This document shows, in pieces, positions 961 through 14,486 of a stretch of 16,220 nt of DNA. Source of the DNA: Candidatus Brocadiaceae bacterium (GTDB taxonomy: Bacteria; Planctomycetota; Brocadiia; Brocadiales; Bathyanammoxibiaceae); NCBI GenBank assembly GCA_030018855.1, contig JASEHG010000024.1:1-16220 (forward strand), in the 5' to 3' direction. The notes below the pieces were generated by a model that did not search any database, was not told the origin of the DNA, and worked only from the letters and a program-made list of their open reading frames with translations. Within the stretch, counting starts at the first letter, position 1. Each line of letters begins with the position of its first letter. The position numbers and the translations under genes are program-made.

Positions 961-1084
961 TAGGGGGTAGGGAAGAATTGCATTGTAAATTGAAAATTGC
1001 AAATTTTAAAATTTAATCCGCCTCAGGCGGACCAATTTACACTTTACAATTTTCTGTTCCCTGGTCCCTACCCCCTACTCCCTA
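961..1084. repeat. Composite palindromic element in the divergent intergenic region. A 13-bp perfect outer stem encloses AT-rich word repeats and a small GC hairpin.
   Basis: TAGGGGGTAGGGA (961-973) is the exact reverse complement of TCCCTACCCCCTA (1066-1078). Inside are reiterated ATTGTAAA/TTTACAAT-type words, a perfect 14-nt palindrome AAATTTTAAAATTT (1001-1014) and the hairpin CCGCC-TCA-GGCGG (1018-1030). A related string CCTGAGGCGGACC recurs at about 1197-1209. Confidence 0.75.
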
Positions 1085-1110
1085 GTCTACACCGTCCATT
1101 TCAAAAGTTA

Positions 1111-1140
1111 TTGACATGATAGGAGGTAAACTGCTAGACT
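1111..1140 (+). promoter_or_regulatory. Candidate sigma70-like promoter for the 1256 ORF
   Basis: TTGACA (1111-1116), 18-nt spacer, TAGACT (1135-1140). Motif match only. Confidence 0.3.
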
Positions 1141-1255
1141 CTTCCCTTTAGGTATTATAGGGGCATCCGCCCGCCCAAAAGATGGCGGATTTTCAACCTG
1201 AGGCGGACCGCATTCCCACACTTCGGGCAGGATAAGAAGGGGAAAGGAGTATGAG

Positions 1256-1708
1256 ATGAGACCCTGGTTGACAGGGGTGGCGAGGCCACTCTTAACGGTA
1301 GTGGTGGTTTGGGGGTTGTCCATTCTTGTCTGGAATGGTCTTGTACTTGGAGAACTCAGACATCAATACTATCTCCTTGCTGAGACGGGTCACGAACCCG
1401 GGTGTGTGGTGGACATACATATTAATGATGAGCATGTTGCGGTGATAGAGCCAGAGGTTAAGAAGGAGATAGTGGACGTAACTTCTTTTGTGGAGGCAGG
1501 AGTTAACGAGGTAGTATTTGAGGCAGAAGCCCTTGCGGATGAGGGGGATGACGATGGCACAATAAGTATCCAGATAGGGTCTGGCACTTATAAGGATGGC
1601 AAGCTGAACTGGGAGGCCTTAAGTGTCCAGTACAGCGTGTCCAGGTCCCAGATAAAGAAGGAAAAGAAAGAGATTATCACCACCTCCCTTAAATTTGATG
1701 CCAGTTAG
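1256..1708 (+). CDS. Hypothetical protein with an N-terminal signal-anchor/TM helix (150 aa)
   Basis: ORF track entry. AGGAG lies about 8 nt upstream. The upstream ATG at 1250 runs into a TGA after two codons. N-terminal hydrophobic stretch LLTVVVVWGLSILVWNGLVL, then an acidic soluble domain with no motif I recognise. Confidence 0.55.
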   Translation: MRPWLTGVARPLLTVVVVWGLSILVWNGLVLGELRHQYYLLAETGHEPGCVVDIHINDEHVAVIEPEVKKEIVDVTSFVEAGVNEVVFEAEALADEGDDDGTISIQIGSGTYKDGKLNWEALSVQYSVSRSQIKKEKKEIITTSLKFDAS

Positions 1709-1738
1709 TCCTTACGGGGCGTAACAAAGGGGAAGGTC

Positions 1739-1766
1739 TTGAATTTTGTGTTTGTCAAGATATAAT
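1739..1766 (+). promoter_or_regulatory. Candidate sigma70-like promoter for the zinc-ribbon gene
   Basis: TTGAAT (1739-1744), 16-nt spacer, perfect TATAAT (1761-1766). GGAGG RBS about 8 nt before the ATG at 1810. Confidence 0.45.
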
Positions 1767-1809
1767 TTGTTAATCAGCAGTTAGCGTTTTGCTTTGGGGA
1801 GGTTAATGT

Positions 1810-2070
1810 ATGCCGACGTATGAGTATAGGTGTGAAGGTTGCGGTCATGAATTTGAGCTCTTTGAATCCATTAATGCCGGCAAGGTGAAGACCTGCCCCT
1901 CTTGCGGGAATAAGGCCAAGAGGCGTATTGGGACGGGGTCAGCCGTAATCTTTAAGGGGAGTGGTTTTTATCAGACGGATTATCGCAGTAAGGACTACCA
2001 CGACAAGGCCAAGGCAGAAAAGGGTGGCGGGGCCGCCCCAGGCGAGGCGTCCAAGGGGGGGAAACAATAG
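1810..2070 (+). CDS. FmdB-family zinc-ribbon protein (putative regulatory protein)
   Basis: N-terminus MPTYEYRCEGCGHEFE...CPSCG is the characteristic FmdB/CxxC-x(n)-CxxC zinc ribbon. It has a Gly/Lys-rich tail and a strong GGAGG RBS. Confidence 0.85.
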   Translation: MPTYEYRCEGCGHEFELFESINAGKVKTCPSCGNKAKRRIGTGSAVIFKGSGFYQTDYRSKDYHDKAKAEKGGGAAPGEASKGGKQ

Positions 2071-2081
2071 GCAGGGTGGTG

Positions 2082-2099
2082 GCGGGTCTCCAGACCCGC
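2082..2099 (+). terminator. Possible stem-loop terminator after the zinc-ribbon gene
   Basis: GCGGGTCT-CC-AGACCCGC, a perfect 8-bp stem, extended by AGGCAG (2069-2074) pairing with CTGCCT (2108-2113) and followed by GATTTT. There is no clean U-tract directly after the inner stem. Confidence 0.35.
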
Positions 2100-2138
2100 A
2101 AAATAGACTGCCTGATTTTGAGAAGACAGAGTTTGTTA

Positions 2139-2168
2139 TTGACAATAGAATGCGTACGATGTTATCAT
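2139..2168 (+). promoter_or_regulatory. Candidate sigma70-like promoter for the ACP-to-radical-SAM operon
   Basis: TTGACA (2139-2144), 18-nt spacer, TATCAT (2163-2168). It shares the TTATTGACA context with the 1111 candidate. Motif match only. Confidence 0.4.
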
Positions 2169-2257
2169 ATTTCAAATTTATTCCACCCGAGCGGGGTCTC
2201 TATAATCTAAAGGGTGGCTTTTTGTCTCAAAGGGTTTTAGAGTGAACAAAAAGGAGG

Positions 2258-2557
2258 GTGTATTTGGAGACACTGAGCACGGAAGAAGTAGAAAAGGATG
2301 TTACTGCCATAGTAGCAGAGGTGACCGAGCTAGATAGGGAGGAGATATGGCAGAAAAGGGAGGCCAACTTTTTCAAAGAACTGGAGATAGACTCCCTCCT
2401 GGCCCTGGAGATATTGGCCCTTATAGAAAAGAAGTTCAAGATTCAGATTCCTGAAGAGAAGCTGGTAGACATTACCTCTCTAACTGGCACCATCAATATG
2501 ACCAAAGCGGTCCTGTCTGAGAATGGAAGGCTCAAGGGAGAGCCTCAGAAGGCCTAG
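2258..2557 (+). CDS. Acyl carrier protein, dedicated and longer than canonical AcpP
   Basis: The phosphopantetheine-attachment motif EIDSLLALEI (DSL serine at about residue 46) sits in a small acidic helical protein. The tracked GTG at 2258 directly abuts the AAGGAGG SD (2251-2257). TTG at 2264, with 6-nt spacing, is the more plausible start. Confidence 0.85.
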   Translation: MYLETLSTEEVEKDVTAIVAEVTELDREEIWQKREANFFKELEIDSLLALEILALIEKKFKIQIPEEKLVDITSLTGTINMTKAVLSENGRLKGEPQKA

Positions 2558-2569
2558 GAAGGACCCTTT

Positions 2570-3019
2570 ATGGGTATCAGTTTTGAGGAGGTAAGGAGAC
2601 TAGTCCCTCAGAGGTATCCTTTTCTCTTCATAGACAAGGTGGTGGAGTTAGAGGAAGGTAAGAGGATCTTATGCCTAAAGAATGTCTCAGGAAATGAATC
2701 TTTTTTTGTAGGACATTTCCCAGAGTATGCCATAATGCCTGGGGTGCTGACCCTGGAAGCCCTGGCCCAAGCCTCCATAATCTTATTCAAAAAAAGCTTC
2801 CTTAAAGAAGAAACTTCCAATTCGGTATTCCTCCTGGCCTCTCTGAGGGCCAGTTTCGTAAAGCCTGTCTTCCCCGGAGACCAGTTACTCCTGGAAGTCA
2901 ACGTGGAAAAGGTGGTGTCCAAAGGGGCAATTGTGCAGGGTACGGCAAGGGTGGGGGAGGAGATAGTAGCCAAGGCCTCCTTGACCTTCGGTCTGGCTGA
3001 TAAGAGTTCTCTGGGTTAG
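2570..3019 (+). CDS. fabZ: 3-hydroxyacyl-ACP dehydratase FabZ
   Basis: Hallmark strings LVPQRYPFLFIDKV and GHFPEYAIMPGVLTLEALAQ, with the catalytic His and Glu present. Length is 149 aa. RBS AGGAAGGA is 7 nt upstream. Confidence 0.93.
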   Translation: MGISFEEVRRLVPQRYPFLFIDKVVELEEGKRILCLKNVSGNESFFVGHFPEYAIMPGVLTLEALAQASIILFKKSFLKEETSNSVFLLASLRASFVKPVFPGDQLLLEVNVEKVVSKGAIVQGTARVGEEIVAKASLTFGLADKSSLG

Positions 3020-3090
3020 ATTTGGAGATTTAGAGATTTGAGATTTAGGGATTTAAAATCTAAAAATCCAAAATCTCAAAATCTAAAATT
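3017..3090. repeat. Mirrored word array: about 5 x (R)GAGATTT followed by about 5 x AAAATCT(C), forming an imperfect hairpin
   Basis: The sequence reads TAGATTT GGAGATTT AGAGATTT GAGATTT AGGGATTT | AAAATCT AAAAATCC AAAATCTC AAAATCT AAAATT. The first TAG is the fabZ stop codon. The element ends 5 nt before the fabF ATG. Confidence 0.8.
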
Positions 3091-3095
3091 ATGAA

Positions 3096-4316
3096 ATGGA
3101 AAGGCGTGTAGTAGTCACTGGGCTGGGCGTAATTACCCCTATCGGTTCTGGCAAGGACAAGTTCTGGAAGGCCCTGCTGGAAGGGAAGTCAGGCGTAGGG
3201 GAGGTAACTTGCTTTGATACCTCAGGACACAAAGTCCATAGGGGTACGGAGGTAAGGGACTTTAATCCCAGGGACTACATTAAGAACGGGACCGTAGACC
3301 AGCTGGGTAAGGGGTCTCAGATGGCCATTGCGGCCACCAAGTTGGCCCTGATGGACGGGGGACTAGGGCTTGCGGAGGTTGACCCAACAAGGATTGGCGT
3401 ATCAGTAGGAACGACCGGGGGAGAGATACAGATACTGGAAAAGATAAACCTTATAAGATATGGGCAGGACGAAGACCATGTGGACATAGGCCTCTTTCTG
3501 AGGCATCCCTGCAACAATATCCCCTCCAACATTGCCAGAGAATTTGGCCTCAAGGGCCCCAACATTATTATTCCCACCGCCTGTGCAGCCGGCAATTACG
3601 CCATTGGTTACGCCTACGACCTTATAAAACTAGGGAGGGCTGATTATATGCTGGCAGGGGGGGCAGACCCCTTCTCCAAGGTGGCCTTTATTGGCTTTGG
3701 CCGCCTGGGGGCAGTGGCACCGGATATCTGTCAGCCCTTTGATAAAAACCGTAAAGGCATGCTTGTGGGAGAGGGGGCAGGCATACTATTACTGGAACCC
3801 CTGGATAATGCCCTGAAAAGGGGTGCCACTATCTATGCCGAGATTATCGGCTACGGCCTTAGTTGCGATGGGTATCACATCACTATCCCACACCCGGAAG
3901 GGGATGGGGTGGCCTCCTCACTGCGGAAGGCCCTGAAGAATGCCGACATAACCCCTGAGGACGTGCAGTATATAAATGCCCACGGGACCGGTACCGTTGC
4001 CAACGACAGGGCAGAAACTATCTCTATAAAGAAGGTCTTTGGGGACCATGCCAGGAAGTTACTGGTGAGTTCTATAAAGTCCATGATGGGTCACACCATG
4101 GGGGCGGCCAGCGCAATAGAGACGGTTACCTGTGCCCTGGTGGTAAAACATGACGTAGTCCCCCCCACTATCAATTATCAGACAAAGGACCCAGAATGTG
4201 ACCTGGATTATGTGCCTAACGTAAAAAGGGAACATCCCGTAAACATAGCCCTTAACACGGCCTATGCCTTTGGGGGTAACAACAGTTGTCTGGTTATAAA
4301 GAAGTTCTTGAATTAA
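3096..4316 (+). CDS. fabF: Beta-ketoacyl-ACP synthase II (FabF-type), catalytically complete
   Basis: N-terminus [15 protein letters not shown]. Active-site Cys is in [11 protein letters not shown], His in [10 protein letters not shown] and His in [21 protein letters not shown] and the C-terminal [11 protein letters not shown] are present. In-frame TAA at 3084-3086 fixes the start at 3096. No SD is visible upstream. Confidence 0.93.
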
Positions 4317-4362
4317 CCGCAACATGCAGCTCCTTTCCCTATATTTTTAGCCATACAGAGAA

Positions 4363-5589
4363 ATGCAGAAACGGGTCGTAGTAACAGGTATTGGGATTAT
4401 CAGCCCCATAGGCACCGGTAAGGAGGCCTTCTGGGGGAACCTGGCTGCGGGTGTCTCAGGGGTAAGGCCCGTTACCCTCTTTGACGTGAGTAGGTACACC
4501 AGCCGGGCGGCTGGAGAAATAACTGACTTCAGTCCCAAGACCTACCTTGGACAGAAAGGTATAAGGCATTTTGATAGGACAAGCCTACTCATAACTGCCA
4601 CCGCTGCTATGGCCCTGGAAGATGCCCGACTGGATAAGGTCTATGGGGAGGAAGATATAGGGATAGTGGTGGGGTCCACCTTTGGGAGCATTAACAGTAT
4701 ATCTACCTTTGACATGGACGCCCTCAGAGAGGGGCCCAATTACGTCAACCCAATGGATTTCCCCAATACCGTCCTTAATGCCCCCGCCAGCCGTGCCTCC
4801 ATTTTTTGCCAGGCTAAAGGGCTAAACTCTACCGTTTCCACAGGGGAGACCAGTGGGACGGACGCTATAATCTATGCCTCTGACTTTCTTAAGATGGAAA
4901 GGATAAAGGTGGTGCTAGCTGGGGGCGTTTATGGCCTTACGAGGGATATCTTCTGGGCGGCTTACAAGGCAGGGGTCCTCTCCGGCAGTAAAGACAGCCA
5001 ATCAGAAATATGCGCACCATTTGATAAGAGGCGGAACGGAATTGTACTGGGAGAAGGGGCCGCATTACTGGTCCTTGAGACCCTGGAAGATGCCCTGGCC
5101 CGTAAGGCCACCATATATGCAGAGGTCAAAGGTTATGGTACTGCCTTCAATCCCACGAGCCTGAGCCAGAGTGACCTCCAGGGTGGGGTAAGGGCAGTCT
5201 CCATGGCCCTCCAGGAGGCAGGCCTCGGCCCGCGGGATATATCCTATGTCTCGGCCAATGCCAACTCCAGCCCTAACGGCGACCGTATGGAGGCCACCGT
5301 TATAAAGGAATCCTTCAAGGAACGGGCAAAAAGCATCCCTGTTAGTGCCATAAAGTCCATGACCGGGGACTGCCTGGACGCCTCCGGAACCATGCAGTGT
5401 ATAGCCTGCGTCGGGGCAATCAATAACGGGATAATCCCCCCGACGATCAACTATCGGGAACCAGACCCATTATGTGACCTTGACGTAGTCCCTAACGTGA
5501 AGAGGGAAGCAGTGGTCAGACATGCCCTGGTACAGAGTTTTTCTTACACAGGCAACTGTTCTGCCATGGTACTGTCTAAATACTCCTGA
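4363..5589 (+). CDS. KS-like protein lacking the Cys-His-His triad (chain-length-factor-like partner of the preceding FabF)
   Basis: It has the same fold signature (KRVVVTGIGIISPIG, LAGG, PPTINY, DVVPN). By hand alignment anchored on LAGG, GYG and Y(I/V)xA, Cys is replaced by Glu (STGETSGTDAI), His1 by Ser (NPTSLSQ) and His2 by Asn (VSANANSS). The GH of IKSMxGH becomes GD. In-frame TAG at 4348-4350 fixes the start. Confidence 0.85.
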   Translation: MQKRVVVTGIGIISPIGTGKEAFWGNLAAGVSGVRPVTLFDVSRYTSRAAGEITDFSPKTYLGQKGIRHFDRTSLLITATAAMALEDARLDKVYGEEDIGIVVGSTFGSINSISTFDMDALREGPNYVNPMDFPNTVLNAPASRASIFCQAKGLNSTVSTGETSGTDAIIYASDFLKMERIKVVLAGGVYGLTRDIFWAAYKAGVLSGSKDSQSEICAPFDKRRNGIVLGEGAALLVLETLEDALARKATIYAEVKGYGTAFNPTSLSQSDLQGGVRAVSMALQEAGLGPRDISYVSANANSSPNGDRMEATVIKESFKERAKSIPVSAIKSMTGDCLDASGTMQCIACVGAINNGIIPPTINYREPDPLCDLDVVPNVKREAVVRHALVQSFSYTGNCSAMVLSKYS

Positions 5590-5595
5590 CAATGA

Positions 5596-7008
5596 ATGGG
5601 CAGACCCTCGGCAAAACGGTACGACGTAGTAGTCATTGGGGCGGGTATTGGGGGGCTGGTCTGTAGTGCCTTCCTGTCCAGGAAGGGGAAGAAGGTACTC
5701 CTGGTAGAACAGCATTCTCAGCCTGGGGGTTACTGCACTACGTTCAAGAGGAAAGGTTTCGTCTTTGATGCAGCCGTGCATCATATAGGAGGTTGCGGAC
5801 GCTACAGTATCGTGGGGAGGTGTCTGAAAGAGTTGGGTCTGGGAATGGAGTTCTTCAGGCTGGACCCTATGGACAGCCTCATCTTCCCCGATTTTTCTAT
5901 TGATATTCCAGCAGAAATAGAGGATTATATAACTCTGCTGGGCAAGAAATACCCATTAGAAAAGGGACACGTTGAGAAGTTCTTTAAGGATTTTGTAAAA
6001 CTCTACTGGGCCATAATCAACGAGGCCTCAGATAGCCCAACCTTGAATAACTACAAGAATACGACGTATAAAGAGATGCTGGATAGCTTTTTTGAGGACG
6101 AGGGGCTGAAGAGGACCCTGGCAGGTCAGTGGGGCTATCTTGGTACGCCCCCTGGAGAGGTATCCAGTATAGGGATGTGCCAGATGTTGATAAATTACCT
6201 GAGGGATGGGGCCTATTACCCCAAGGGTGGCACACAGAACTTTGCCAATGGCCTGGCTAAGAATTTTACCGAATCCGGAGGTGAGACCCTCCTATCCACT
6301 ATGGCAGAAGAGGTCCTCATGGACGGTAGGAAGGTAAGGGGCGTTAAGCTGGAAGGAGGATGTGAGGCCCTGGCAGACGTAGTGGTTTCTAACGTGGATG
6401 CCAGGCAGACCTTTTCACGCCTCGTTAAAGAAGAGTTTGACCATACGTATTCAGAGAGGCTAAGGGGCATGAAAGAAAGCCCCTCCTATTTCCTCCTATA
6501 TCTGGGGCTTGACCCGGAGATTGACCTGAAAGGGTTCAGGAGAGGCTTTTATCACGGTCCGGGTAACCAGTGGAAATACGTATCTGCCCCCACAAAGGTG
6601 GATAGCAGCCTGGCCCCTGGAGGGAGACAGATTCTTAACGTGGTAGCCACCGTAGAGGAAAGTTACGAAGAAGTGAGGGACTGGAAGGCCCTGAAGGACA
6701 GGCTCACCCAGGAGAACATAAATTATCTTGATAGGCTGATACCCGCTCCAGGTGGACTCAGAAAGCACATAGAAGTAGTGGAGGCCGCAACCCCCAGGAC
6801 CCTGGAGCGATACACCCTGAATTCCAGAGGGGCTGCCTACGGGTGGGCAGTTACCCCGGAGCAGACAGGTTCGGGAAGGCTGGACCATCGCACCCCACTA
6901 GATAATCTCTTTCTGGCAGGACACTGGACGAATCCAGGGCCAGGAGTCTGTGCGGTAGTATCTTCGGGCTGGAGGGTGGCAAATCTTATACTAGGGAGTA
7001 GGGGGTAG
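5596..7008 (+). CDS. FAD-dependent oxidoreductase of the phytoene desaturase (CrtI)/COG1233 family
   Basis: N-terminal dinucleotide fold YDVVVIGAGIGGLVCSAFLSRKGKKVLLVEQHSQPGGY. C-terminal family motif LFLAGHWTNPGPGVCAVVSSG. Length is 470 aa. The start is 6 nt after the KS-like stop. Confidence 0.85.
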   Translation: MGRPSAKRYDVVVIGAGIGGLVCSAFLSRKGKKVLLVEQHSQPGGYCTTFKRKGFVFDAAVHHIGGCGRYSIVGRCLKELGLGMEFFRLDPMDSLIFPDFSIDIPAEIEDYITLLGKKYPLEKGHVEKFFKDFVKLYWAIINEASDSPTLNNYKNTTYKEMLDSFFEDEGLKRTLAGQWGYLGTPPGEVSSIGMCQMLINYLRDGAYYPKGGTQNFANGLAKNFTESGGETLLSTMAEEVLMDGRKVRGVKLEGGCEALADVVVSNVDARQTFSRLVKEEFDHTYSERLRGMKESPSYFLLYLGLDPEIDLKGFRRGFYHGPGNQWKYVSAPTKVDSSLAPGGRQILNVVATVEESYEEVRDWKALKDRLTQENINYLDRLIPAPGGLRKHIEVVEAATPRTLERYTLNSRGAAYGWAVTPEQTGSGRLDHRTPLDNLFLAGHWTNPGPGVCAVVSSGWRVANLILGSRG

Positions 7009-7070
7009 GGGATAGGGAGTAGGGAAAAGAGAAAAGATTGCTACCCCCTACACCCTACCCCCTACACCCT
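6992..7070. repeat. TAGGG-word / CCCTA-word long imperfect hairpin, with G-quadruplex-capable arms
   Basis: Left arm TAGGGAGTAGGGGGTAGGGGATAGGGAGTAGGG (6992-7024), 16-nt A-rich loop, right arm CTACCCCCTACACCCTACCCCCTACACCCT (7041-7070). GGGGGTAGGG (7001-7010) is the exact complement of CCCTACCCCC (7053-7062). The left arm encodes the last codons and the TAG stop (7006-8) of the CrtI-like gene. Confidence 0.85.
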
Positions 7071-7092
7071 AATTAAAGAGGAGGTAAGTTAT

Positions 7093-8544: not shown

Positions 8545-8549
8545 AAGTT

Positions 8550-8609
8550 GTAGGGGCGTATTGTTCGCTATTATGCGAATCTGCCTAAGGCATGGCAATA
8601 CGCCCCTAC
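8550..8609. repeat. GTAGGGGC-family element folding as a three-way junction
   Basis: Perfect 14-bp outer stem GTAGGGGCGTATTG (8550-8563) / CAATACGCCCCTAC (8596-8609). It encloses two mini-hairpins, TTCGC-TATTAT-GCGAA (8564-8579) and TGCC-TAA-GGCA (8582-8592). It starts 6 nt after the rSAM stop and has no U-tract. Confidence 0.8.
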
Positions 8610-8684
8610 CGCGGCCCCTCTAATAACCACTCTTAAAGGAGCTTACGTCTGGTGCAAATCTTTGCATGAGGCCCGATTTTGCTA

Positions 8685-8865: not shown

Positions 8866-8890
8866 ATACAACATCCTTCTCCTAATAGAC

Positions 8891-8939
8891 GTAGGGCACG
8901 GTTTTAACCCTGCCCAATATGGACAGACCTTTAGGTCTG
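8891..8939. repeat. Leader hairpins of the GTAGGG / CTGCCCA word family
   Basis: GTAGGGCACGG-TTTTAA-CCCTGCCC (8891-8915) is a stem with one mismatch. It is followed by CAGACCT-TT-AGGTCTG (8924-8939). The word CTGCCCA(A)TA occurs at 8911, 8936 and 11472. Confidence 0.5.
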
Positions 8940-8971
8940 CCCATACTACGTACACCTCTTGGAGGTAGGCG

Positions 8972-10873
8972 ATGGCTCACGAGGATAGGTTTACCATAGA
9001 TTTAGGACAGCCTGAACTCAATATAAACATCCTGCCACGTCTTGCTATCCGCTATAAAGGTTCCTTCCAAAAGCTCCTCTCAGAAAGAAAATACAAAGCA
9101 GACGTTGCCAATGACCTACAATGGTTCCACAAAAACGTACCCTGCCGTGAGGCCTGTCCTGTAGGGACTAATGCCAGGGCCTATGTCACGGCCATTGCTA
9201 AGGGGGATTACCAGGAGGCCTACCTTGTAGCTCGTGAAAACAACCCCTTTGTATCTGTCTGCGGTAAGATTTGTAATGCCCCCTGTGAACCTGTCTGCAC
9301 CAGGAGTAAGCTGGACGAACCGGTGTCCATTAGGGCCCTGAAAGGGTTTGCGGTAGAAAAAAACCGTCTGGGCACCAGAGAGGTCTACCAGTGGCTCAAT
9401 AAAAAGAAGGGGAAGGTGTCGCTTGCTGGAAAGGCAGAAGTTCCTAATATAGCAATAGTTGGAGCAGGGCCTGCGGGCCTGTCTGCCGCACACGACCTCG
9501 CTCTTATGGGTTACAAGGTGAAACTACTGGAGGCCTCCAGCCAGCCTGGTGGTATGTTGAACAACGCCATCCCCGCCTTCAGGCTAGACAGAGAGGCAGT
9601 AAAAAGAGACATAGAAGGCATCCTCTCGCTGGGTATGGAATTAGAGATTAACACCAGGTGTGGAGAGGACTTCGGTATAGATGAGCTCAGGCAGAAGTAC
9701 GATGCCGTACTCTTAGCCGCCGGCTTACAGAAGGGTAGGTCCCTGGACGTGCCTGGCATGGAACTAGCAGGGGTATCTCAGGGGCTGGATTTCCTCAAAG
9801 AAGTGGCCTCCAGGGGGAGGGCCTCATTGGGGACGAAGGTTGTGGTAGTGGGCGGGGGTAGTATGGCTGTAGAGGTGGCCCGTACTGCACGGCGATTAGG
9901 GGTATGGAATACAAAGGTAACTGTGGTCTCTTACGAGGCATCCAGGGGTACGAAGCCCGGAAAGCCGGGGCAAGAGATGACAGCAGAGGATACGGAGATT
10001 GCTGAGGCCCTACAAGAAGGGGTGGTATTCTATCCAGGGCTTGGTCCTAGACGCATATTGGGAGAAGGCGGCAGGGTAACGGGTCTGGAACTGGTCCCGG
10101 TTGTGGCACTAGACCGTGACGGGGGAGGGCGATATAAACCTGTCTTTGGGCAAAACGGTTCCAGCGTTATAGAGGCAGACACGGTACTCCTGGCGATTGG
10201 CCAGGAGCCTGATACTGCCCTTCTCCAGAATACGAATTGTGGGGTGCGGATTGCGGAATCCCGCATCCTGCATTCCGAATTCCGCATTCCTGGGGCGGAT
10301 GGGGTCTTTGTCTGTGGTGACCTGGCTGGTGCTGGGCATGTAGTGGAGGCGGTTGCCTCCGGGCAGAAGGCCGCCCTTGCCATCCATAATTACCTGGAAG
10401 GCAAGGGTTCTCTTGGACTAGGCGAACTGCGCCCTGTAGTACCCGTCCACCACCACGAGAAATCGGACACCTTTACCAAACGGCTTACGATAGGTCGGAT
10501 TCTGCCTCCAATAGCACCCACAGATGCCAGGCTCAGGGGTATGGACCCCGTGGAAGGGAGTTATTCTGAGAAGGTTGCCAGGAGGCAGGCGGAGAGGTGC
10601 CTGGACTGTACGGTAAGCCCAATGATAGGGCCCTACCATCCTTGCACCGCCTGTGGCGACTGTCTGGACGTCTGCCCTACAGAGTGTCTTTCTTTAAGGT
10701 TCATGAATAATAAAGACCTCAGTTTTGGTGACAGTTGCATAGAGGAGGCTGAGGGAGAAGGCCCCTGGGTGGGGTTAATTATAAATGAAGAGGAGTGTGT
10801 CCACTGCGGGGCCTGCGCCGAGGCCTGCTGGTCGGATGCCATATACATGGTAAAGTTCAAAGAGATGGAATAG
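8972..10873 (+). CDS. GltD-like FAD/NAD(P)H-dependent iron-sulfur oxidoreductase with a C-terminal 2x[4Fe-4S] ferredoxin domain (NAD(P)-linked subunit of the Rieske/cyt b complex)
   Basis: N-terminal GltD-type Cys clusters (CREACPVGTNARAYV; VCGKICNAPCEPVCTR). Two dinucleotide folds (IAIVGAGPAGLSAA; VVVVGGGSMAVEVA). GVFVCGD motif. C-terminal CTACGDCLDVCP and CVHCGACAEAC. Confidence 0.88.
   Translation: MAHEDRFTIDLGQPELNINILPRLAIRYKGSFQKLLSERKYKADVANDLQWFHKNVPCREACPVGTNARAYVTAIAKGDYQEAYLVARENNPFVSVCGKICNAPCEPVCTRSKLDEPVSIRALKGFAVEKNRLGTREVYQWLNKKKGKVSLAGKAEVPNIAIVGAGPAGLSAAHDLALMGYKVKLLEASSQPGGMLNNAIPAFRLDREAVKRDIEGILSLGMELEINTRCGEDFGIDELRQKYDAVLLAAGLQKGRSLDVPGMELAGVSQGLDFLKEVASRGRASLGTKVVVVGGGSMAVEVARTARRLGVWNTKVTVVSYEASRGTKPGKPGQEMTAEDTEIAEALQEGVVFYPGLGPRRILGEGGRVTGLELVPVVALDRDGGGRYKPVFGQNGSSVIEADTVLLAIGQEPDTALLQNTNCGVRIAESRILHSEFRIPGADGVFVCGDLAGAGHVVEAVASGQKAALAIHNYLEGKGSLGLGELRPVVPVHHHEKSDTFTKRLTIGRILPPIAPTDARLRGMDPVEGSYSEKVARRQAERCLDCTVSPMIGPYHPCTACGDCLDVCPTECLSLRFMNNKDLSFGDSCIEEAEGEGPWVGLIINEEECVHCGACAEACWSDAIYMVKFKEME
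10244..10286. repeat. In-frame copy of a 43-nt GCGGAAT/ATTCCGC word element inside the GltD-like CDS
   Basis: GTGCGGATTGCGGAATCCCGCATCCTGCATTCCGAATTCCGCA matches the intergenic 11405-11447 at 33 of 43 positions (hand count). The first 7 and last 13 nt are identical, over the same overall length. It encodes VRIAESRILHSEFRI. Confidence 0.45.
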
Positions 10874-10888
10874 GGAGAAAAATGTTTT

Positions 10889-11392
10889 ATGTTTAAACCA
10901 GTGGCGAAGGCTGAGGCTATAGACCCGAAGAAGATTGCCCGTAGGGAGGCTATCCGAAAGGGCCTCTTCTGGGCCTGTTGGGGGGTCTTCATTGGGTTTG
11001 CCGGGATATTAGGGGCAAGCATAGTGAGGTTTGCGTATCCCAGGATAGTCTTTGAGCCCTCCAGTATATTTAAAGCCGGTAAACCGGACGACTACAAGGT
11101 AGGTTCGGTTGCGCTTATCCATGGTAGAGGGGTCTTTGTGATAAGGACGGAAAAGGGATTCTATGCCCTATCAGCCAAGTGTACCCATTTGGGATGCCAG
11201 CCCATCTGGTATGAGGACCAGCAGGTCTTCAAGTGTCCGTGTCATGGCGCCCGTTTTGATAAGGAAGGTATTAACTTTGCCGGTCCAGCCCCCCTGCCAT
11301 TGCCCAGGTTCCACCTGAGCCTCTCCCCGGATGGCCGTTTACTGGTAGATAAGTCAACAAACGTGGGTATGGACTTCTTCCTGGAGGCATGA
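10889..11392 (+). CDS. Rieske [2Fe-2S] protein
   Basis: CTHLGC...CPCHGARFD cluster-binding boxes. N-terminal Arg-rich segment (IARREAIRKGLF) followed by a TM helix, as in Tat-dependent Rieske anchors. The upstream ATG at 10882 hits a TAA after 4 codons. Confidence 0.92.
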   Translation: MFKPVAKAEAIDPKKIARREAIRKGLFWACWGVFIGFAGILGASIVRFAYPRIVFEPSSIFKAGKPDDYKVGSVALIHGRGVFVIRTEKGFYALSAKCTHLGCQPIWYEDQQVFKCPCHGARFDKEGINFAGPAPLPLPRFHLSLSPDGRLLVDKSTNVGMDFFLEA

Positions 11393-11404
11393 AAAGGGCG
11401 TGGA

Positions 11405-11447
11405 GTGCGGAGTACGGGATTCTGGACTCCGCCTTCCGAATTCCGCA
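11405..11447. repeat. Intergenic 43-nt GCGGA/TCCGC word element
   Basis: Contains the hairpin GCGGAGT-N12-ACTCCGC and the 3' string TTCCGAATTCCGCA. It is paralogous to 10244-10286. Confidence 0.55.
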
Positions 11448-11452
11448 CAGTT

Positions 11453-11477
11453 GTAGGGGCAGGGCTTGCCCCTGCCC
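11453..11477. repeat. GTAGGGGC-family hairpin
   Basis: GTAG-GGGCAGGG-CTTGC-CCCTGCCC (8-bp stem, 5-nt loop). It is preceded by GTT as in the 8547 copy and followed by ATA. Confidence 0.7.
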
Positions 11478-11502
11478 ATAAGAAAGGCGAGGTAAGATTG
11501 GA

Positions 11503-12123
11503 ATGAAGTGGGTACCGTTAGGCCTTGTGAGATATACCGTCTGTCTGGGCGGGCTCAGTGTGTTCTTCTTCCTGTTATGCATCCTCACCGGGCCATTCCT
11601 GATGCTTTATTATGTGCCTGACGTGAACCGTGCCCATGCCGACGTGATGGATATTATGCAGGTAGTGCCCTTTGGGGCCTTTGTCAGGAACGTCCACCGC
11701 TGGTCGGCCTGTCTTATGATTGTCTGCGTACCCGCACACATGACCAGGGTATTCCTTCAGGCCGCATATAAGCCCCCGCGCCAGCTCAACTGGCTGGTAG
11801 GGATTACGCTGCTAATCCTTACCTATCTCATGTGTTTCACGGGCTACATGCTCCCCTGGGACCAGGAGGCCTACTGGGGCGCCACCATCGGGGCCACCAT
11901 GGCGGAGAACTCCCCTTTCCTTGGGGCAAAAGGACCCTTTAGCGTACTTCCGCCAGATAAGGACATACATTACATAATGCTGGGTGGTACCGTGTTAGAC
12001 CAACCGACGCTCAGCCGTTTCTTTTTCGCGCACTGTATCGCTATCCCAGGTGCCCTCGCAGGGTTAATGGGATTCCACTTTTTCAATATCCACAGGGCCG
12101 GTGGTATGTCGGGCCCATTATAA
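11503..12123 (+). CDS. Cytochrome b, N-terminal (b6-like) subunit
   Basis: Helix B heme ligands HRWSACLMIVCVPAH (H-x13-H) and helix D HCIAIPGALAGLMGFH (H-x14-H). N-terminal VCLGG matches the YCLGG heme-ci cysteine context of b6. In-frame TAA at 11479-81 fixes the start. Confidence 0.92.
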   Translation: MKWVPLGLVRYTVCLGGLSVFFFLLCILTGPFLMLYYVPDVNRAHADVMDIMQVVPFGAFVRNVHRWSACLMIVCVPAHMTRVFLQAAYKPPRQLNWLVGITLLILTYLMCFTGYMLPWDQEAYWGATIGATMAENSPFLGAKGPFSVLPPDKDIHYIMLGGTVLDQPTLSRFFFAHCIAIPGALAGLMGFHFFNIHRAGGMSGPL

Positions 12124-12137
12124 CCAGGGAACAACCT

Positions 12138-12938
12138 ATGGCAGAAAAGATCGTTGAAGAAGGACCAGTAACCGCAGAGGGCAAAGAAAAGCTGAGACTC
12201 CTCACAGTGGTGAGGGGTGAGACCCTGCGGAATAGGGACATCTACGAGAGACCTCCCAAGTACGAACTCTTCTTCCCCAATTTCGTGATGAAGGAGTTGT
12301 GCGTGGGATTGGCCTTCCTAATAATTATCTTTATGTGGGCCTACTTTAAGGATTCGCCCCTTTACGAGTTGTCTGACCCCGCTGAGACACCTTCACACAT
12401 AAAGGCCGCATGGTACTTTGTGGGATTACAGGAGATGCTGGCCTATTTTGACCCCTATCTGGCAGGGGTGATTATCCCCTCCATGATACTGGCCGGGCTT
12501 TATCTGATACCCTTTATTGACCCAGACCCGGTGAAGGGGATAGGCCGTTTTGCCTTCAAGGAGAGGAAGTTCGCCATCGGCTGTTTCCTGGGGGGGGTTG
12601 CCATGTGGTATGGCCTCCTCCTGGTGGGCTGGTTCTTCAGGGGACCTTACTGGAGCTTCTACTGGCCGTGGGAGGACCACTCGGTAGTGAAGGCCACGGA
12701 AGTAGCCCTCTGGAGCTTCCCCCTCCCAGCAGGGATAGCCTTCCTCGTGTGTTATGGGATGTTGGTGCTTATCCTCCCCGCCGTTATCTTCCAGAACTTC
12801 TTCTTCCGGCTGGGGTTGATAAGATACCTTATCACGTTTAACCTCTTTGCGGTCATGTGTTTCGTACCCATCAAGATACTTCTGAGAAGCGCATTTAGTG
12901 TGAAATATATACTTGTAACACCATGGTTCAACATTTAA
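12138..12938 (+). CDS. Cytochrome b C-terminal subunit (subunit IV-like, extended with extra TM helices)
   Basis: AAWYFVGLQEMLAYF aligns with the PEWYF(Y/L)P Qo-site segment of subunit IV / cyt b C-terminal domains. Multiple hydrophobic helices. It starts 14 nt after the cyt b stop. Confidence 0.85.
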   Translation: MAEKIVEEGPVTAEGKEKLRLLTVVRGETLRNRDIYERPPKYELFFPNFVMKELCVGLAFLIIIFMWAYFKDSPLYELSDPAETPSHIKAAWYFVGLQEMLAYFDPYLAGVIIPSMILAGLYLIPFIDPDPVKGIGRFAFKERKFAIGCFLGGVAMWYGLLLVGWFFRGPYWSFYWPWEDHSVVKATEVALWSFPLPAGIAFLVCYGMLVLILPAVIFQNFFFRLGLIRYLITFNLFAVMCFVPIKILLRSAFSVKYILVTPWFNI

Positions 12939-12966
12939 GAGGAGACCGCTGAAAAACATGCGCAGT

Positions 12967-13039
12967 GTCATTCTGAGGGAGCGAAGCGACCGAAGAATCT
13001 CAGTTGAAACGGGAGATTCTTCGCTTCGCTCAGAATGAC
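12967..13039. repeat. Long three-segment hairpin (CATTCTGAG...CTCAGAATG type)
   Basis: Left arm GTCATTCTGAG-ggag-CGAAGCGA-ccga-AGAATCTC, loop AGTTGAAACGG, right arm GAGATTCT-TCGCTTCG-CTCAGAATGAC. That is 27 bp in three helices with two 4-nt bulges and no U-tract. Confidence 0.85.
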
Positions 13040-13084
13040 AGGACGTATCATTGAGACTTTTGCAGAGGTCTCAAGAGACTAAAA

Positions 13085-14338
13085 ATGTTTCCTATTAACC
13101 TTTCTATAAAGTGGCTGATACCTTTTCTGATATTCTCCTGCGGCCTGGTGGCCGTAAGTCTGCTATGGGTCTTCAGAGAGACCTGGAGGGTGGAGTGGAA
13201 GATGTACCAGAAGCAAGAGTACGCCCAGATGAAGACAGACATGGAGGCCAAGCTAAAGGTACTGGAAGACCCCCAGTGGGGTGACCCCAAAAAGGCCGCC
13301 CTGGCCAGGAACAGCCTGGAGTACCTCAAAAAACCCAGATATCAGGTCAAACAGATAATCCTTAAGGGGGAGGGAAGCTGGAAAAAAGGGACAAGTGGCG
13401 TAAGGGTAGACAGGTGCATGACCTGCCACATAAACGAGGATAAACTCATTAAACAGCACCCCTACACGGCAGAGATATTCGCCTTTGACATTTATGGATG
13501 TACGGTTTGCCATGAGGGTAATGGGCGTGCCATCAAGAAGGCCTCAGCCCATGAGCATATGCTAGAGAAGAAGGCGGACATGTATAACAGGCTTGTCCAT
13601 CCAGAGGACGCCATTAAGTTCTGGAAGACCCTGGCCGGATTGGATATTCGGGACGGATTAGATGCCAGCGACTTCAGGTATTACAACGTCACAGGAGAAC
13701 CCCAGGTTTACGTGGGGAGCACTACCTGCATTAAGTGCCACAAGAAACTCACTGCCTATCACGTAGATTTCTGGGCAGGGAGCAAGTTCAAGACGTTTGA
13801 GAAGGTAAAAAATGCAAAGGATTTTATAGAAGGGGACGATAACTACCGCAAACAGTGTTATAAGTGTCATACCACAGGGTATAACGAGAAGACCGGAGAA
13901 TACAACGAAGAGAACGTAACTTGTGAGGCCTGCCATGGGCCAGGCGAGGTATACTCACAGTTTATGAGTACTGGAAAACTGGCGGAGGCGGCTACCCTAA
14001 CCAGGGACACCTTCAGCTTCAAGGTCTGTGGTAACTGCCACATCCCCAGGAATCATGAGATGCGGTTGCCCAGGCTCCTGGCTACGGAGAAAATAGAACT
14101 ATCCAGCTCATTACGAGAAGATGTAGGGGCGACCCGGCGGGTCGCCCCAGAGGAAGGGGAATTAAATCTAGCAGAAGAAGCGTCTGTCCCGGACATATTT
14201 ACTCTAATTAGTTTCTCCCACGAAGAAAAAGGGGCCCCGAAGGCCACCGGAGAGGGGCTTAGACCCCAGGAGGTGGAGAAAGGGACCCCTATTCCTGAAG
14301 TACATAGGACTCAAGCAGAGATAGGCACTAAAGGTTAG
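13085..14338 (+). CDS. Membrane-anchored hexaheme cytochrome c
   Basis: N-terminal TM helix (WLIPFLIFSCGLVAVSLLWVF). Six CxxCH motifs: CMTCH, CTVCH, CIKCH, CYKCH, CEACH, CGNCH. The last 98 aa are low-complexity and Glu-rich, and the true C-terminus is uncertain. Confidence 0.85.
   Translation: MFPINLSIKWLIPFLIFSCGLVAVSLLWVFRETWRVEWKMYQKQEYAQMKTDMEAKLKVLEDPQWGDPKKAALARNSLEYLKKPRYQVKQIILKGEGSWKKGTSGVRVDRCMTCHINEDKLIKQHPYTAEIFAFDIYGCTVCHEGNGRAIKKASAHEHMLEKKADMYNRLVHPEDAIKFWKTLAGLDIRDGLDASDFRYYNVTGEPQVYVGSTTCIKCHKKLTAYHVDFWAGSKFKTFEKVKNAKDFIEGDDNYRKQCYKCHTTGYNEKTGEYNEENVTCEACHGPGEVYSQFMSTGKLAEAATLTRDTFSFKVCGNCHIPRNHEMRLPRLLATEKIELSSSLREDVGATRRVAPEEGELNLAEEASVPDIFTLISFSHEEKGAPKATGEGLRPQEVEKGTPIPEVHRTQAEIGTKG
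14123..14148. repeat. GTAGGGGC-family perfect hairpin embedded in the hexaheme CDS tail
   Basis: GTA-GGGGCGACCC-GGC-GGGTCGCCCC, a 10-bp perfect GC-rich stem, preceded by GAT. It is read in frame as VGATRRVAP. Confidence 0.75.
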
Positions 14339-14404
14339 AGGGTAATTAGAGGAGGGGAGGTGATAAGACAAAACGTGTTATGTGTGCCCGCCGAACTACG
14401 CCGA

Positions 14405-14473
14405 AGGCAAATTTGCCTGAGGCACGAGCGGATTCTAGTCACCGGTAAGAAATTTCTAGACAGATAACTCTAG
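14405..14473 (+). promoter_or_regulatory. Palindrome plus three TCTAG words upstream of the HAO-like gene (possible operator/internal regulatory region)
   Basis: Perfect 14-nt palindrome AGGCAAATTTGCCT (14405-14418). TCTAG occurs at 14434, 14455 and 14469 (21-nt and 14-nt spacing). The RBS-like AAGGGG is 7 nt before the ATG at 14487. Confidence 0.3.
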
Positions 14474-14486
14474 AAAGGGGAAAAAT

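Follow-up and report, generated by a model that had tools for sequence, protein, structure and literature searches.

Operon-gap hairpins of a groundwater Brocadiales genome are probably recently inserted, dispersed palindromic repeats

REP and REPIN elements, including 'double-foot' GT[AG]G...C[TC]AC REPs, are known together with their RAYT (TnpA-REP) genes, among them RAYT subclass 2.4 (PMC2817692, PMC3116915, PMC3733652, PMC6006769), and GTAG REPs have been described in Planctomycetes (PMC3733652). Inverted heptamer arrays have been described in Xanthomonas, where GGGAATC forms 70-75 convergent inverted pairs per genome, and a G-quadruplex (G4) or i-motif role has been proposed for this repeat and for GGGGAYT of Nostoc (PMC4692102). 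Heptamers also occupy the stem of the S23p-carrying 23S rRNA intervening sequence (IVS) of Coxiella, in which tandem GACAGAT units lie ahead of the S23p ORF and which is excised by RNase III (PMC4990558). The first-pass annotation of the DNA studied here stated that such elements had not been described as a family, which, given these records of inverted heptamer arrays, S23p-IVS heptamer stems and GTAG REPs, holds only in part.

The window, a stretch of 16,220 nt, contains all the hairpins listed by that annotation at the positions given. Folded as isolated RNAs and compared with 200 dinucleotide shuffles, its elements fold much better than the shuffles (z -4 to -6.8): -43.6 kcal/mol (z -5.1) for 961-1092, -21.0 (z -4.0) for 3016-3090, -52.3 (z -6.8) for 6990-7072, -35.4 (z -5.8) for 8547-8612, -27.4 (z -5.2) for 8885-8947 and -57.9 (z -6.7) for 12942-13073. 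Weaker folds were obtained for 11397-11448 (-23.2 kcal/mol, z -2.7), 11449-11482 (z -2.2) and 14378-14436 (z -2.3). A terminator scan returned 20 sites, compared with 16.4 +/- 4.3 in shuffles, and found no terminator-like hairpin at the gap elements, which also have no U-tract, as had been claimed. The gaps of 6, 12, 14, 15 and 46 nt are unstructured (z -0.1 for the last), in agreement with the annotation; this is expected and near-tautological, because the elements themselves are 30-130 nt long. The accompanying claim that every gap above about 70 nt carries a hairpin goes too far: it fails, within the coordinates given, at the 101-nt gap 1709-1809, which contains none (z -0.2). The sole palindrome of the 187-nt gap 2071-2257 is a unique 8-bp one, inside a conserved promoter and leader. 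Genome-wide, hairpins of at least 10 pairs are found in 46-59% of the gaps of 70-1000 nt and in 1-8% of those below 46 nt, so that only about half of the long gaps hold one. The initial observation is, overall, partly confirmed.

Elements of all gaps but one also occur elsewhere in the genome (2.2 Mb; a fragmented, 93%-complete assembly in which genes were called crudely, as longest ORFs filtered by codon score). Uniqueness to the window, which the annotation had named as refuting its proposal, is thus seen at one gap alone. The genome has 1863 hairpins of 10 pairs or more, compared with 380 for a Markov-1 random genome; they are denser between genes (2.0 per kb) than within them (0.35 per kb). 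GTAGGGGC is present 942 times, where its length alone would predict approximately 67. GTAG REPs flank three Y1_Tnp genes, each gene having its own; one RAYT resembling subclass 2.4 (NHIH, WQ, YIITNP) has in-frame GTAGGGGC REPs inside the gene, which fits the description in PMC6006769. Arrays with a period of 7 nt number 460 (348 intergenic), as opposed to 35 with period 6 and 25 with period 8. More than 90 consensus words form a handful of major families, and 42% of the words contain GTAG; in nearly all arrays, GTAG lies to the left and CTAC to the right. The sequences suggest at most a weak link of the heptamer class to GTAG feet and RAYTs, because the constrained core of the arrays differs by family (TAGGG, ACAG, AGTA); of 933 canonical GTAGGGGC REP heads, just 9 have a TAGGG unit ahead of them.

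Relatives with 66-90% protein identity were compared at the junctions. Their fabZ-KS gap measures 3-26 nt (6-13 nt in all but two), their CrtI-rSAM gap 0-12 nt (4-7 nt in all but two) and their cyt b-hexaheme gap 10-14 nt. Because sister genera have gaps of 4-14 nt at these junctions, the hairpins are insertions. At the same points, the congeners G001 (93% nucleotide identity to this genome) and G002 contain other families, or nothing. The hairpins in most long gaps are thus, as judged from these alignments, probably recent insertions that differ between sister species. The proposal of REP/BIME-like elements that expand gaps is borne out by their dispersed, multi-copy nature, the RAYT genes and the short gaps of sister genera; the original interpretation as a whole is partly supported.

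The individual elements, to which no strand is assigned, illustrate this turnover. A MITE occupies the cyt b-hexaheme gap (12942-13072). Its terminal inverted repeats, GAGACCKCTGMAAAAS, are 16 nt long, it encloses a GTCATTCTGAG...CTCAGAATGAC hairpin, and AAGAG is duplicated at its target site (12937-12941 and 13073-13077). In G001 and G002 the site is unoccupied, and their gap there measures 10 nt, like that of sister genera. Pairing of sites by the terminal repeat pattern yielded 13 full elements, the majority of them flanked by duplications of 4-5 bp; BLAST with the 131-nt window copy as reference returned 14 other full and 11 partial copies, and G003 has more than 30. A GTAGGGGCGTATTG...CAATACGCCCCTAC REPIN-like double-foot REP (8550-8609) with a perfect 14-bp outer stem begins 5 nt past the rSAM stop codon; it has 28 copies of 88-90% identity, and a different GTAGGGGCACGGCATGCCGTGCCCCTAC REP takes its position in G001. 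The Rieske/cyt b operon leader holds two neighbouring palindromes (8885-8947), an imperfect GTAGGGCACGG...CCCTGCCC and TATGGACAGACCTTTAGGTCTGCCCATA; the second has 7 copies (87-93% identity), and its loop is inverted in G001 (TTT to AAA). After the Rieske stop codon, a (G/A)TGCGGA-type heptamer hairpin (11397-11448) recurs in G001 and G002 but not in L004 or L009. It is followed by a GTAGGGGCAGGGCTTGCCCCTGCCC REP (11453-11477) with 13 full and 32 partial copies of up to 100% identity, which is missing in G001 and substituted at the same point in G002 by a CCGCCTGAGGCGG element. Further upstream, a TCCGCCTGAGGCGGA-type palindrome (1165-1208) is interrupted by a nested 27-nt insertion (1170-1196) that has 11 other copies of 89-100% identity; the palindrome is uninterrupted in G001. 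CCTGAGGCGG and CCTCAGGCGG are present 341 and approximately 340 times in the genome.

The only exception is the hexaheme-HAO spacer (14339-14486, + strand), a unique leader that contains the 14-nt palindrome AGGCAAATTTGCCT (14405-14418) and three TCTAG words. No further copy was found in the genome, its flanks, TCTAG words included, are conserved in L004, L009, G001 and G002, and L009 has a symmetrically altered palindrome, GGTAAATTTACC. Being unique and conserved across genera, this spacer is not a dispersed repeat.

The remaining elements are hairpins with heptamer arrays. At fabZ-KS, a GAGATTT/AAATCTC hairpin (3016-3090; 6 related copies, 76-78% identity) contains the fabZ stop codon within its first arm, and G001 and G002 have a GTAGGGGTYGCCCCTAC REP in its place. 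The TAGGGNG/CNCCCTA hairpin of the CrtI-like/rSAM gap (6990-7072; 57 copies spanning at least 80% of the element) begins inside the CrtI-like ORF, where its left arm replaces the last codons and provides the stop codon (7006-7008), and leaves the downstream rSAM RBS intact; G001 has an ACAGGNN-array hairpin at this insertion point, and the insertion in G002 lies 9 nt further on. It is highly improbable that such G-rich TAGGG arrays are G4 or i-motif elements instead of hairpins: the TAGGGNG arm has at least four G-runs, and Rehm et al. showed in vitro G4 formation by analogous heptamers (PMC4692102), but the complement of this arm nearly always lies within a few nt and pairs with it, in a -52 kcal/mol duplex, and G-rich words are in the minority here (the other families include GAGATTT, AAATTGN, GTAGACA, GTAGCTA and CAGTTGT). 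Between divergent promoters lies a composite nested hairpin (961-1092), with TAGGGNN outer arms (961-973 and 1057-1084), AAATTGN heptamer arrays as inner arms (approximately 978-1012 and 1033-1056) and the core palindrome TCCGCCTCAGGCGGA (1017-1031). Its 27-nt core has 17 near-identical genome copies, and the orthologous site in G001 contains a different composite.

Copies of 961-1079 with 93-98% identity were found at other, non-orthologous loci of G001, G002 and G003, whose genes are approximately 93% identical. This is hard to reconcile with local growth of the arrays by slippage on both arms and template switching, as opposed to dispersal of mobile copies, which is the growth model of the first-pass annotation. 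Two unrelated words at an identical insertion point in the window and G001, and the use of the same words as arms of PF05635 cassettes, likewise oppose it, as does the fact that a few word families make up most arrays, with conserved inner units and loops (e.g. GTAGCAA..TTGCTAC). We consider local growth quite improbable, although 7 nt is the specific period of the arrays, copies and congeners differ in unit number and in their variable positions, heptamer excess has been ascribed to polymerase slippage (PMC4692102), and shifting the register leaves the arms just as complementary, as would be the case for homogenised arrays. Word-level complementarity is 85% in register and 81-82% when shifted by 7; as every 7-nt register is complementary, position-specific compensation is not evidenced and the idea that pairing was preserved while both arms slipped is not supported; the word families are dispersed copies instead of products of local growth.

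What is new for this window is that PF05635 genes, which encode S23p, an Avd-like four-helix-bundle protein, sit inside inverted tandem arrays. With an inverted-array score cut-off of 13, this applies to 43 of 51 such genes and to 7 of 250 control genes (Fisher p = 2e-36). Five relatives contribute 16 of their 19 genes to the 43, and a set from across the phylum 25 of 29. Inspected by eye, the three PF05635 genes of this genome are all enclosed by inverted arrays; two reach the cut-off and the third scores 12. An array-enclosed PF05635 gene has the architecture of 23S rRNA intervening sequences, and the genome contains an RNase III gene (rnc). The cassette arm words include TAGGGG, AAATTGN, GGAATGCGGA and ACAGGNN, and the words of the window are among them; that of 11397-11448 forms the arms of a cassette in G003 (L100). 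Cassettes with TAGGG arms turned up solely in other genera of the family; in the present assembly, which is fragmented and 93% complete, no cassette has TAGGGNG or GTAGACA, the commonest words of gene-less hairpins. Three sites with a cassette in a congener have here a REP cluster, a gene-less GTAGACA hairpin and a MITE fragment. The shared architecture and words suggest that gene-less heptamer hairpins may derive from PF05635 cassettes; no internal gene remnant was seen in their loops.

The location of the elements allows for another reading, namely that they are selected cis-acting RNA structures, which would set subunit stoichiometry by stabilising upstream cistrons, by directing endonucleolytic processing or by uncoupling translation, the repeat families being mere raw material. 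Across 215 co-directional gaps the elements adjoin the upstream stop codon and spare the RBS (median 11 nt from the stop and 31 nt to the next start; 152 nearer the stop, 60 nearer the start, p = 7e-9). Some hairpin is present at the fabZ-KS and CrtI-rSAM junctions of all three congeners, with differing families and a different insertion point in G002, and this constant occupancy could also reflect selection. REP stems of E. coli are known RNA-processing and stability elements. The stems here are long enough for RNase III, whose gene is present, and IVS stems, too, are known to affect RNA processing and stability (PMC4990558). On the other hand, the gaps of these operons measure 4-14 nt in sister genera, congeners lack both the MITE and the REP at 11453, and element identity is conserved at no junction. 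Asymmetric cores have no orientation bias relative to transcription, in small numbers, and the same families lie between divergent and convergent genes and within genes. The swapped elements and empty sites argue against a conserved regulatory role, and we regard selected RNA structures as unlikely.

We therefore favour, with good confidence, several small non-coding families of selfish palindromic repeats inserted into tight operon junctions. Multi-copy status, insertion relative to relatives, target-site duplication, presence/absence polymorphism, swapping between congeners, RAYT genes and the PF05635-array association were observed directly. Ancestral gaps of 4-14 nt would have received, in the lineage of this groundwater Brocadiales genus, four kinds of element: double-foot GTAG...CTAC REPs/REPINs, for which Y1/HUH RAYT transposase genes are present; a MITE, bounded by terminal inverted repeats and a 5-bp target duplication; TCCGCCTSAGGCGGA palindromes, which are also targets of nested insertions; and hairpins with tandem-heptamer arms, built like the cassettes with a PF05635 gene in the loop and using their words. 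Array length may change by slippage after insertion, and surviving copies would be those that landed beside the upstream stop codon and spared the downstream RBS. The 20-35-bp stems in operon transcripts may be incidental RNase III substrates or barriers to 3'-exonucleases, an effect that would be a by-product and not a conserved design.

Compared with known systems, the element at 12942-13072 resembles bacterial MITEs in its 16-nt terminal inverted repeats, 5-bp target-site duplication, size class (approximately 116-286 nt), multiple copies and empty sites in congeners; unlike them, its interior belongs to a separate dispersed hairpin family (GTCATTCTGAG...), and no autonomous partner transposase was identified. 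Heptamers are reportedly also known from cyanobacteria, as the STRR of Mazel et al. 1990. Likenesses to the Xanthomonas GGGAATC and Nostoc GGGGAYT repeats comprise a period of 7, a place near the end of the upstream gene, approximately 90% intergenic location, stem-loop-capable inverted pairs and strong length and sequence variation between close species; by contrast, more than 90 consensus words are found here, not one, with a GTAG-left/CTAC-right arrangement, and a PF05635 cassette link is not mentioned in PMC4692102. The 23S IVS with S23p ORF (Coxiella, Leptospira; PMC4990558) shares the long inverted-repeat stem with tandem heptamers, heptamer numbers that vary between strains, stems suited to RNase III, and a PF05635 (S23p) gene in the loop of full-length but not short forms. 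The elements here differ in lying between protein-coding genes, not in 23S rRNA helix 25 or 45, and in their hundreds of copies and many different words; RNase III excision is putative. Like REP/REPIN-RAYT systems, the genome has palindromes that are 25-60 nt long, present tens to hundreds of times and mainly extragenic, with a GTAG head and CTAC foot, RAYT genes flanked by their own REPs, and one RAYT with the NH[IFV]H / WQ / YIxNNP motifs of subclass 2.4 and REPs in frame; these RAYTs are putative mobilisers of the REPs. As differences, the regular alternation of BIMEs is not seen in this window, a genome of 2.2 Mb contains several families of REP sequence side by side, and one REP subfamily replaces another at the same site between congeners.

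The window is taken from the start of contig C166, which extends a few tens of bases beyond it. Its operon genes all lie on the + strand and constitute two operons separated by a 427-nt spacer. The first is a fatty-acid/ladderane-type cluster encoding an ACP-like protein, FabZ, two ketosynthases (KS), a CrtI-like flavoprotein and a B12-radical-SAM (rSAM) enzyme, and the second encodes an NAD(P)/FeS oxidoreductase, a Rieske protein, a split cytochrome b, a multihaem (hexaheme) protein and an HAO-like protein. The hairpins listed for their gaps in the first-pass annotation are all present, and the isolated elements fold far below 200 dinucleotide shuffles. The values are -43.6 kcal/mol (z -5.1) for the composite at 961-1092, -21.0 (z -4.0) for the GAGATTT hairpin between fabZ and KS (3016-3090), -52.3 (z -6.8) for the TAGGG hairpin between the CrtI-like and rSAM genes (6990-7072), -35.4 (z -5.8) for the REPIN at 8550-8609 (folded as 8547-8612), -27.4 (z -5.2) for the palindromes at 8885-8947, -23.2 (z -2.7) for the heptamer hairpin at 11397-11448, -17.2 (z -2.2) for the REP, a short GTAG palindrome, at 11453-11477 (folded as 11449-11482), -57.9 (z -6.7) for the MITE between cyt b and the hexaheme gene (12942-13072, folded as 12942-13073), and -19.9 (z -2.3) for 14378-14436 in the hexaheme-HAO spacer.

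The proposal that every gap over about 70 nt carries a hairpin fails at two positions. The gap at 1709-1809 (101 nt) contains a good promoter match without a hairpin (z -0.2), and that at 2071-2257 (187 nt) contains a conserved promoter and leader, its sole palindrome being a unique 8-bp one. The leader (2105-2257, 150 nt), 5' of the ACP-like gene, is nearly identical in a close relative, the aquifer MAG RIFCSPHIGHO2_12_FULL_52_36 (G001; 93% nucleotide identity), and includes the best promoter match of the window (TTGACA-18-TATCAT, 11/12, at 2139-2168); the fatty-acid/ladderane operon probably has its real start here. Genome-wide, with crude gene calls, hairpins of at least 10 pairs occur in 46-59% of gaps of 70-1000 nt and in 1-8% of gaps shorter than 46 nt. 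Such hairpins number 1863 in the genome, where a random genome has 380, and are denser in intergenic DNA (2.0 per kb) than in genes (0.35 per kb). The association of long gaps with hairpins is a real trend, not a rule. Folding confirms that the short gaps are unstructured, largely because of their size. Also as proposed, the hairpins are not terminators, since none of the terminator-like sites falls on a gap hairpin, and the number of intrinsic terminator sites in the window equals the shuffle level. An Rfam scan of the window returned nothing at gathering score, and the sub-threshold matches of the long hairpins to miRNA precursors are spurious.

A copy search of the window's own genome (2.18 Mb, 370 contigs, 93% complete) revealed that the elements are multi-copy and not unique to the window, apart from the hexaheme-HAO spacer. 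The TAGGG hairpin has 57 other copies, the REPIN 28, the REP at 11453 13 full and 32 partial, the MITE 14 full and 11 partial by BLAST (its inner hairpin, 16), the 27-nt core of the 961-1092 composite 17, a 27-nt nested insert at 1170-1196 11, the palindrome at 8918 seven, and the GAGATTT hairpin six weak ones. For the hexaheme-HAO spacer, the core of the 427-nt spacer and the two promoter gaps, no second copy was found in the genome. The intergenic k-mer spectrum is dominated by palindromic 12-mers, the top ones being REP cores; the word GTAGGGGC is found 942 times where about 67 occurrences would be expected, and for CCTGAGGCGG and CCTCAGGCGG the count is about 340 each. In single-linkage BLAST clustering the hairpins merged into one mega-cluster, the families being chained together by composite loci; words and cores served to define the families instead. 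Contigs stop exactly at the repeats, with 25-55 copies per family at contig edges, and contig C237 of a second congener (G002) terminates inside its CrtI-rSAM element. The copy numbers are thus lower bounds, as many copies sit at contig ends, and the repeats fragment the assemblies of this genus.

A comparison of the junctions with those of relatives whose proteins are 66-90% identical reveals the state of these gaps without the elements. The fabZ-KS gap measures 3-26 nt in relatives (6-13 nt in all but two), the CrtI-rSAM gap 0-12 nt (4-7 nt in all but two, with the ribosome-binding site, RBS, within the CrtI 3' end), and the cyt b-hexaheme gap 10-14 nt. The corresponding window gaps of 76, 84 and 146 nt equal the junction lengths of the relatives once the elements are subtracted, and the gap hairpins are evidently insertions. 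One of them modifies a protein: the TAGGG insertion replaced the last codons of the CrtI-like gene (6990-7008), changing the ancestral C-terminus ...ANLILRNGR* to ...ANLILGSRG*, and the stop codon of this enzyme now comes from the TAGGG array of a selfish element. The CrtI-like protein of G001 ends two residues earlier, with a TAA provided by its own element.

Among three congeneric genomes, differences were found at almost every element. The fabZ-KS gap holds the GAGATTT array in the window and an identical GTAGGGGTYGCCCCTAC REP in G001 and G002. At the CrtI-rSAM junction, the TAGGGNG array of the window is replaced at the identical point by an ACAGGNN array in G001, and the insertion of G002 lies 9 nt further on. 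The region 3' of the rSAM stop carries one GTAGGGGC REP subfamily in the window and a different one in G001, and the shared hairpin at 11397-11448 is followed by a REP in the window, by nothing in G001 and by a CCGCCTGAGGCGG element in G002. The MITE site is empty in both relatives. G001 has in addition palindromes in the gaps corresponding to 1709 and 2071 and a MITE with the same terminal inverted repeats (TIRs) in its hexaheme-HAO gap. The 27-nt repeat at 1170-1196 interrupts the loop of a TCCGCCTGAGGCGGA palindrome that is intact in G001. This turnover at fixed slots fits selfish elements that insert into or beside palindromes and at a few permissive positions, and argues against a conserved regulatory design; a designed stoichiometry role for the hairpins, as had been suggested, is unsupported. 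The hairpins lie at a median of 11 nt from the upstream stop and 31 nt from the next start, which fits either selection against disturbance of the RBS or a role at the 3' end. Asymmetric cores display no clear orientation bias relative to transcription, in small numbers.

Two further observations concern the congeners. The central loop of the palindrome TATGGACAGACCTTTAGGTCTGCCCATA (8918-8945) is inverted in G001, from CCTTTAGG to CCTAAAGG, a hairpin-loop flip such as intrastrand template switching, or re-insertion of the element the other way round, would be expected to produce. In the third congener (G003, 94% complete), the rSAM, cytochrome b and HAO parts of the window find paralogue-level DNA matches only (65-74%), and the orthologue-level match is restricted to the first 813 nt; the two operons may be absent from this assembly or from the genome itself.

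Three genera share conserved flanks of the hexaheme-HAO spacer (14339-14486), which is itself unique in the genome; AGAGGAGGGGAGGTGAT and three TCTAG words 5' of the HAO RBS are among the conserved parts. The central palindrome reads GGCAAATTTGCC in the window and GGTAAATTTACC, a symmetric change, at a locus from another genus (L009). This resembles an operator, or a leader hairpin that would serve an internal promoter or control translation of the HAO-like gene.

The short palindromes belong to a REP population with its own putative mobilisers. The element at 8550-8609 starts with GTAG and ends with CTAC, and that at 11453-11477 starts with GTAG and ends with ...CCCTGCCC, without the 3' CTAC foot; the family consensus sequences are GTAGGGGC...GCCCCTAC and GTAGCCGCAGGC...GCCTGCGGCTAC. 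Genes for Y1_Tnp proteins on three contigs (C82, C155 and C337) are each flanked by their own GTAG REPs. A further RAYT, as the Y1 transposase of REPs is called, is of the subclass-2.4 type (C251:397-921), displays NHIH, WQ and YIITNP motifs, and contains two or three GTAGGGGC-type REPs in frame in its coding sequence. A similar gene in G003 has the motifs and in-frame REPs as well. Fragments of such RAYT genes were found at the contig ends of C247, C4 and C314. The REPs are polymorphic in presence and absence between congeners, with the RAYT as putative mobiliser. The 146-nt cyt b-hexaheme gap consists of a 131-nt MITE with the TIR GAGACCKCTGMAAAAS, terminal ends GAGACCTCTGAAAAAG and the target-site duplication (TSD) AAGAG. 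A pattern search for the TIR joined its matches into 13 full elements, most of which have flanking duplications of 4-5 bp.

A further class of hairpins is built from heptamers. The genome contains 460 period-7 arrays (348 intergenic) compared with 35 of period 6 and 25 of period 8, and they fall into 93 consensus words, mainly GTAGGGR, GTAGACA, GTAGGCA, GTAAGCA, GTAGCTA and AAATTGN. They pair in the form [GTAGNNN]n-loop-[NNNCTAC]n, with 55 strict inverted pairs versus 8 direct-only pairs, and inner units and loops are common within each major word family. A four-unit GTAGNNN run occurs 73 times in this genome and 35-97 times in congeners; two other genera of the family have 16-27 such runs, and elsewhere they are few or missing. 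The reversed control pattern gave no match in nearly all genomes and 63 in one distant genome of the same order. GTAG is found within 42% of the consensus words against 5% expected. Amplification of REP feet was considered as the origin of the arrays and is at most a weak lead: a TAGGG unit precedes only 9 of 933 GTAGGGGC heads, and GTAG is not a uniformly constrained part of the unit. The connection of the heptamer class to GTAG and the RAYTs is weak. Growth by slippage on both arms with pairing preserved, as proposed from the word arrays, found no support in the arms: compensatory register-specific pairing was not seen. The arms are complementary at the word level in all registers (85% in register, 81-82% when shifted by 7 nt).

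Arrays of this build also enclose genes of the family PF05635 (S23p/Avd-like four-helix-bundle proteins; PMC10053308) in cassettes, in which the gene occupies the loop between inverted tandem arrays. The three PF05635 genes of this genome all lie inside such arrays by eye; at an array score cut-off of 13 two of them qualify, and the third scores 12. Inverted-array flanks were found for 16 of 19 PF05635 genes in five relatives and for 25 of 29 across 29 diverse Planctomycetota genomes, mostly at lag 7. This results in 43 of 51 overall, against 7 of 250 size-matched controls drawn from the window's own genome (Fisher p = 2e-36). The cassette words CAGTTGT and GGACTNT also form gene-less hairpin families in this genome, and cassette arms elsewhere include the window's TAGGGG, AAATTGN and GGAATGCGGA as well as ACAGGNN, the word of the G001 CrtI-rSAM gap. 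Three sites that hold a cassette in a congener are occupied in the window's genome by a REP cluster, a gene-less GTAGACA hairpin or a MITE fragment. One PF05635 protein matches the Xanthomonas S23p pentamer (PDB 2GSC; E 5e-20). To our knowledge, no function has been assigned to the PF05635 protein outside DGRs, and we found no paper that links dispersed intergenic heptamer hairpins to this family. Other genes enclosed by array pairs were considered as cargo, namely rnpA on C12 and a gene for a small conserved protein on C66, and were dismissed as ordinary genes between two separate hairpins.

The gene-less hairpins may derive from cassettes rather than from homing of the gene into loops. A joint reading, which we offer tentatively and at somewhat less than even odds, is that there is a widespread 'IVS-like' mobile element, with PF05635 in its loop at full length, and that the heptamer-array hairpins are its MITE-like form without the gene. 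The classical 23S rRNA intervening sequence (IVS) would then be the special case in rRNA, and the heptamer repeats (SSRs) seen in Xanthomonas, Nostoc and other bacteria would be part of one system with it. Propagation or maintenance of the hairpins would involve the PF05635 protein, and transcribed stems would serve as RNase III substrates that cut the operon mRNAs between cistrons. The RNase III gene rnc is present in this genome. A candidate IVS in the partial 23S gene of G003 was discarded: the insertion of about 620 nt in domain IV (~108-745 of L140, G003:C14:1-1800) is no IVS and has an ORF with a LAGLIDADG-type motif by eye (...WITGFVDGEGCF...), a putative homing endonuclease, which points to a group I intron and away from an S23p-type IVS.

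Because the long gaps hold recent selfish insertions, they are not evidence of internal regulation in these anammox-clade operons, which here comprise the ladderane-type fatty-acid cluster and the Rieske/cyt b-HAO complex. Operons with and without 50-kcal/mol stems between cistrons provide a natural system for comparison. The PF05635 association is the part worth following, and makes two old puzzles testable, where the 23S rRNA IVS comes from and what the very common S23p/Avd-like proteins do, because the genes are tightly associated with array arms, the words are shared with gene-less hairpins, and element classes swap at fixed slots between congeners.

The first-pass observation is thus largely right and its REP-like reading right in kind, with the BIME part set aside. 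The window elements share with REP/REPIN-RAYT systems high-copy short imperfect palindromes and a 5' GT[AG]G, and the genome shares RAYT (Y1 HUH) genes flanked by or containing cognate REPs; the gene on C251 and its REPs fit the double-foot pattern that Quentin et al. (PMC6006769) describe for subclass 2.4. In Planctomycetes, REPs with GTAG had been reported before (PMC3733652), and a literature search for REPs of anammox bacteria gave nothing relevant. The regular alternation with defined linkers of BIMEs does not occur in the window, which holds, unlike BIMEs, single REPs, one doublet and mixed stacks of a REP beside a heptamer hairpin; REP clusters are present elsewhere in the genome, as on C323. 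The element at 12942-13072 shares TIR and TSD, a multi-copy state and the lack of coding capacity with MITEs. The heptamer hairpins, taken at first for an undescribed family, are a variant of known heptamer and IVS repeats. They are like the SSRs of Xanthomonas, for which inverted heptamer pairs are described (PMC4692102), and of Nostoc in being period-7, intergenic and often arranged as convergent inverted pairs, with 93 words here as opposed to one G-rich word (GGGAATC or GGGGAYT) there. The 23S rRNA IVS resides in helix 25 or 45, whereas the copies examined here are all between or beside protein-coding genes (the 23S gene is unassembled in the window's genome), and those of the window are gene-less. 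In Coxiella, the IVS is excised by RNase III and has tandem GACAGAT heptamers in variable number 5' of the S23p ORF (PMC4990558). The elements described here share with the IVS/S23p cassette a stem of inverted repeats with tandem heptamers and, in the full-length form, the PF05635 ORF in the loop.
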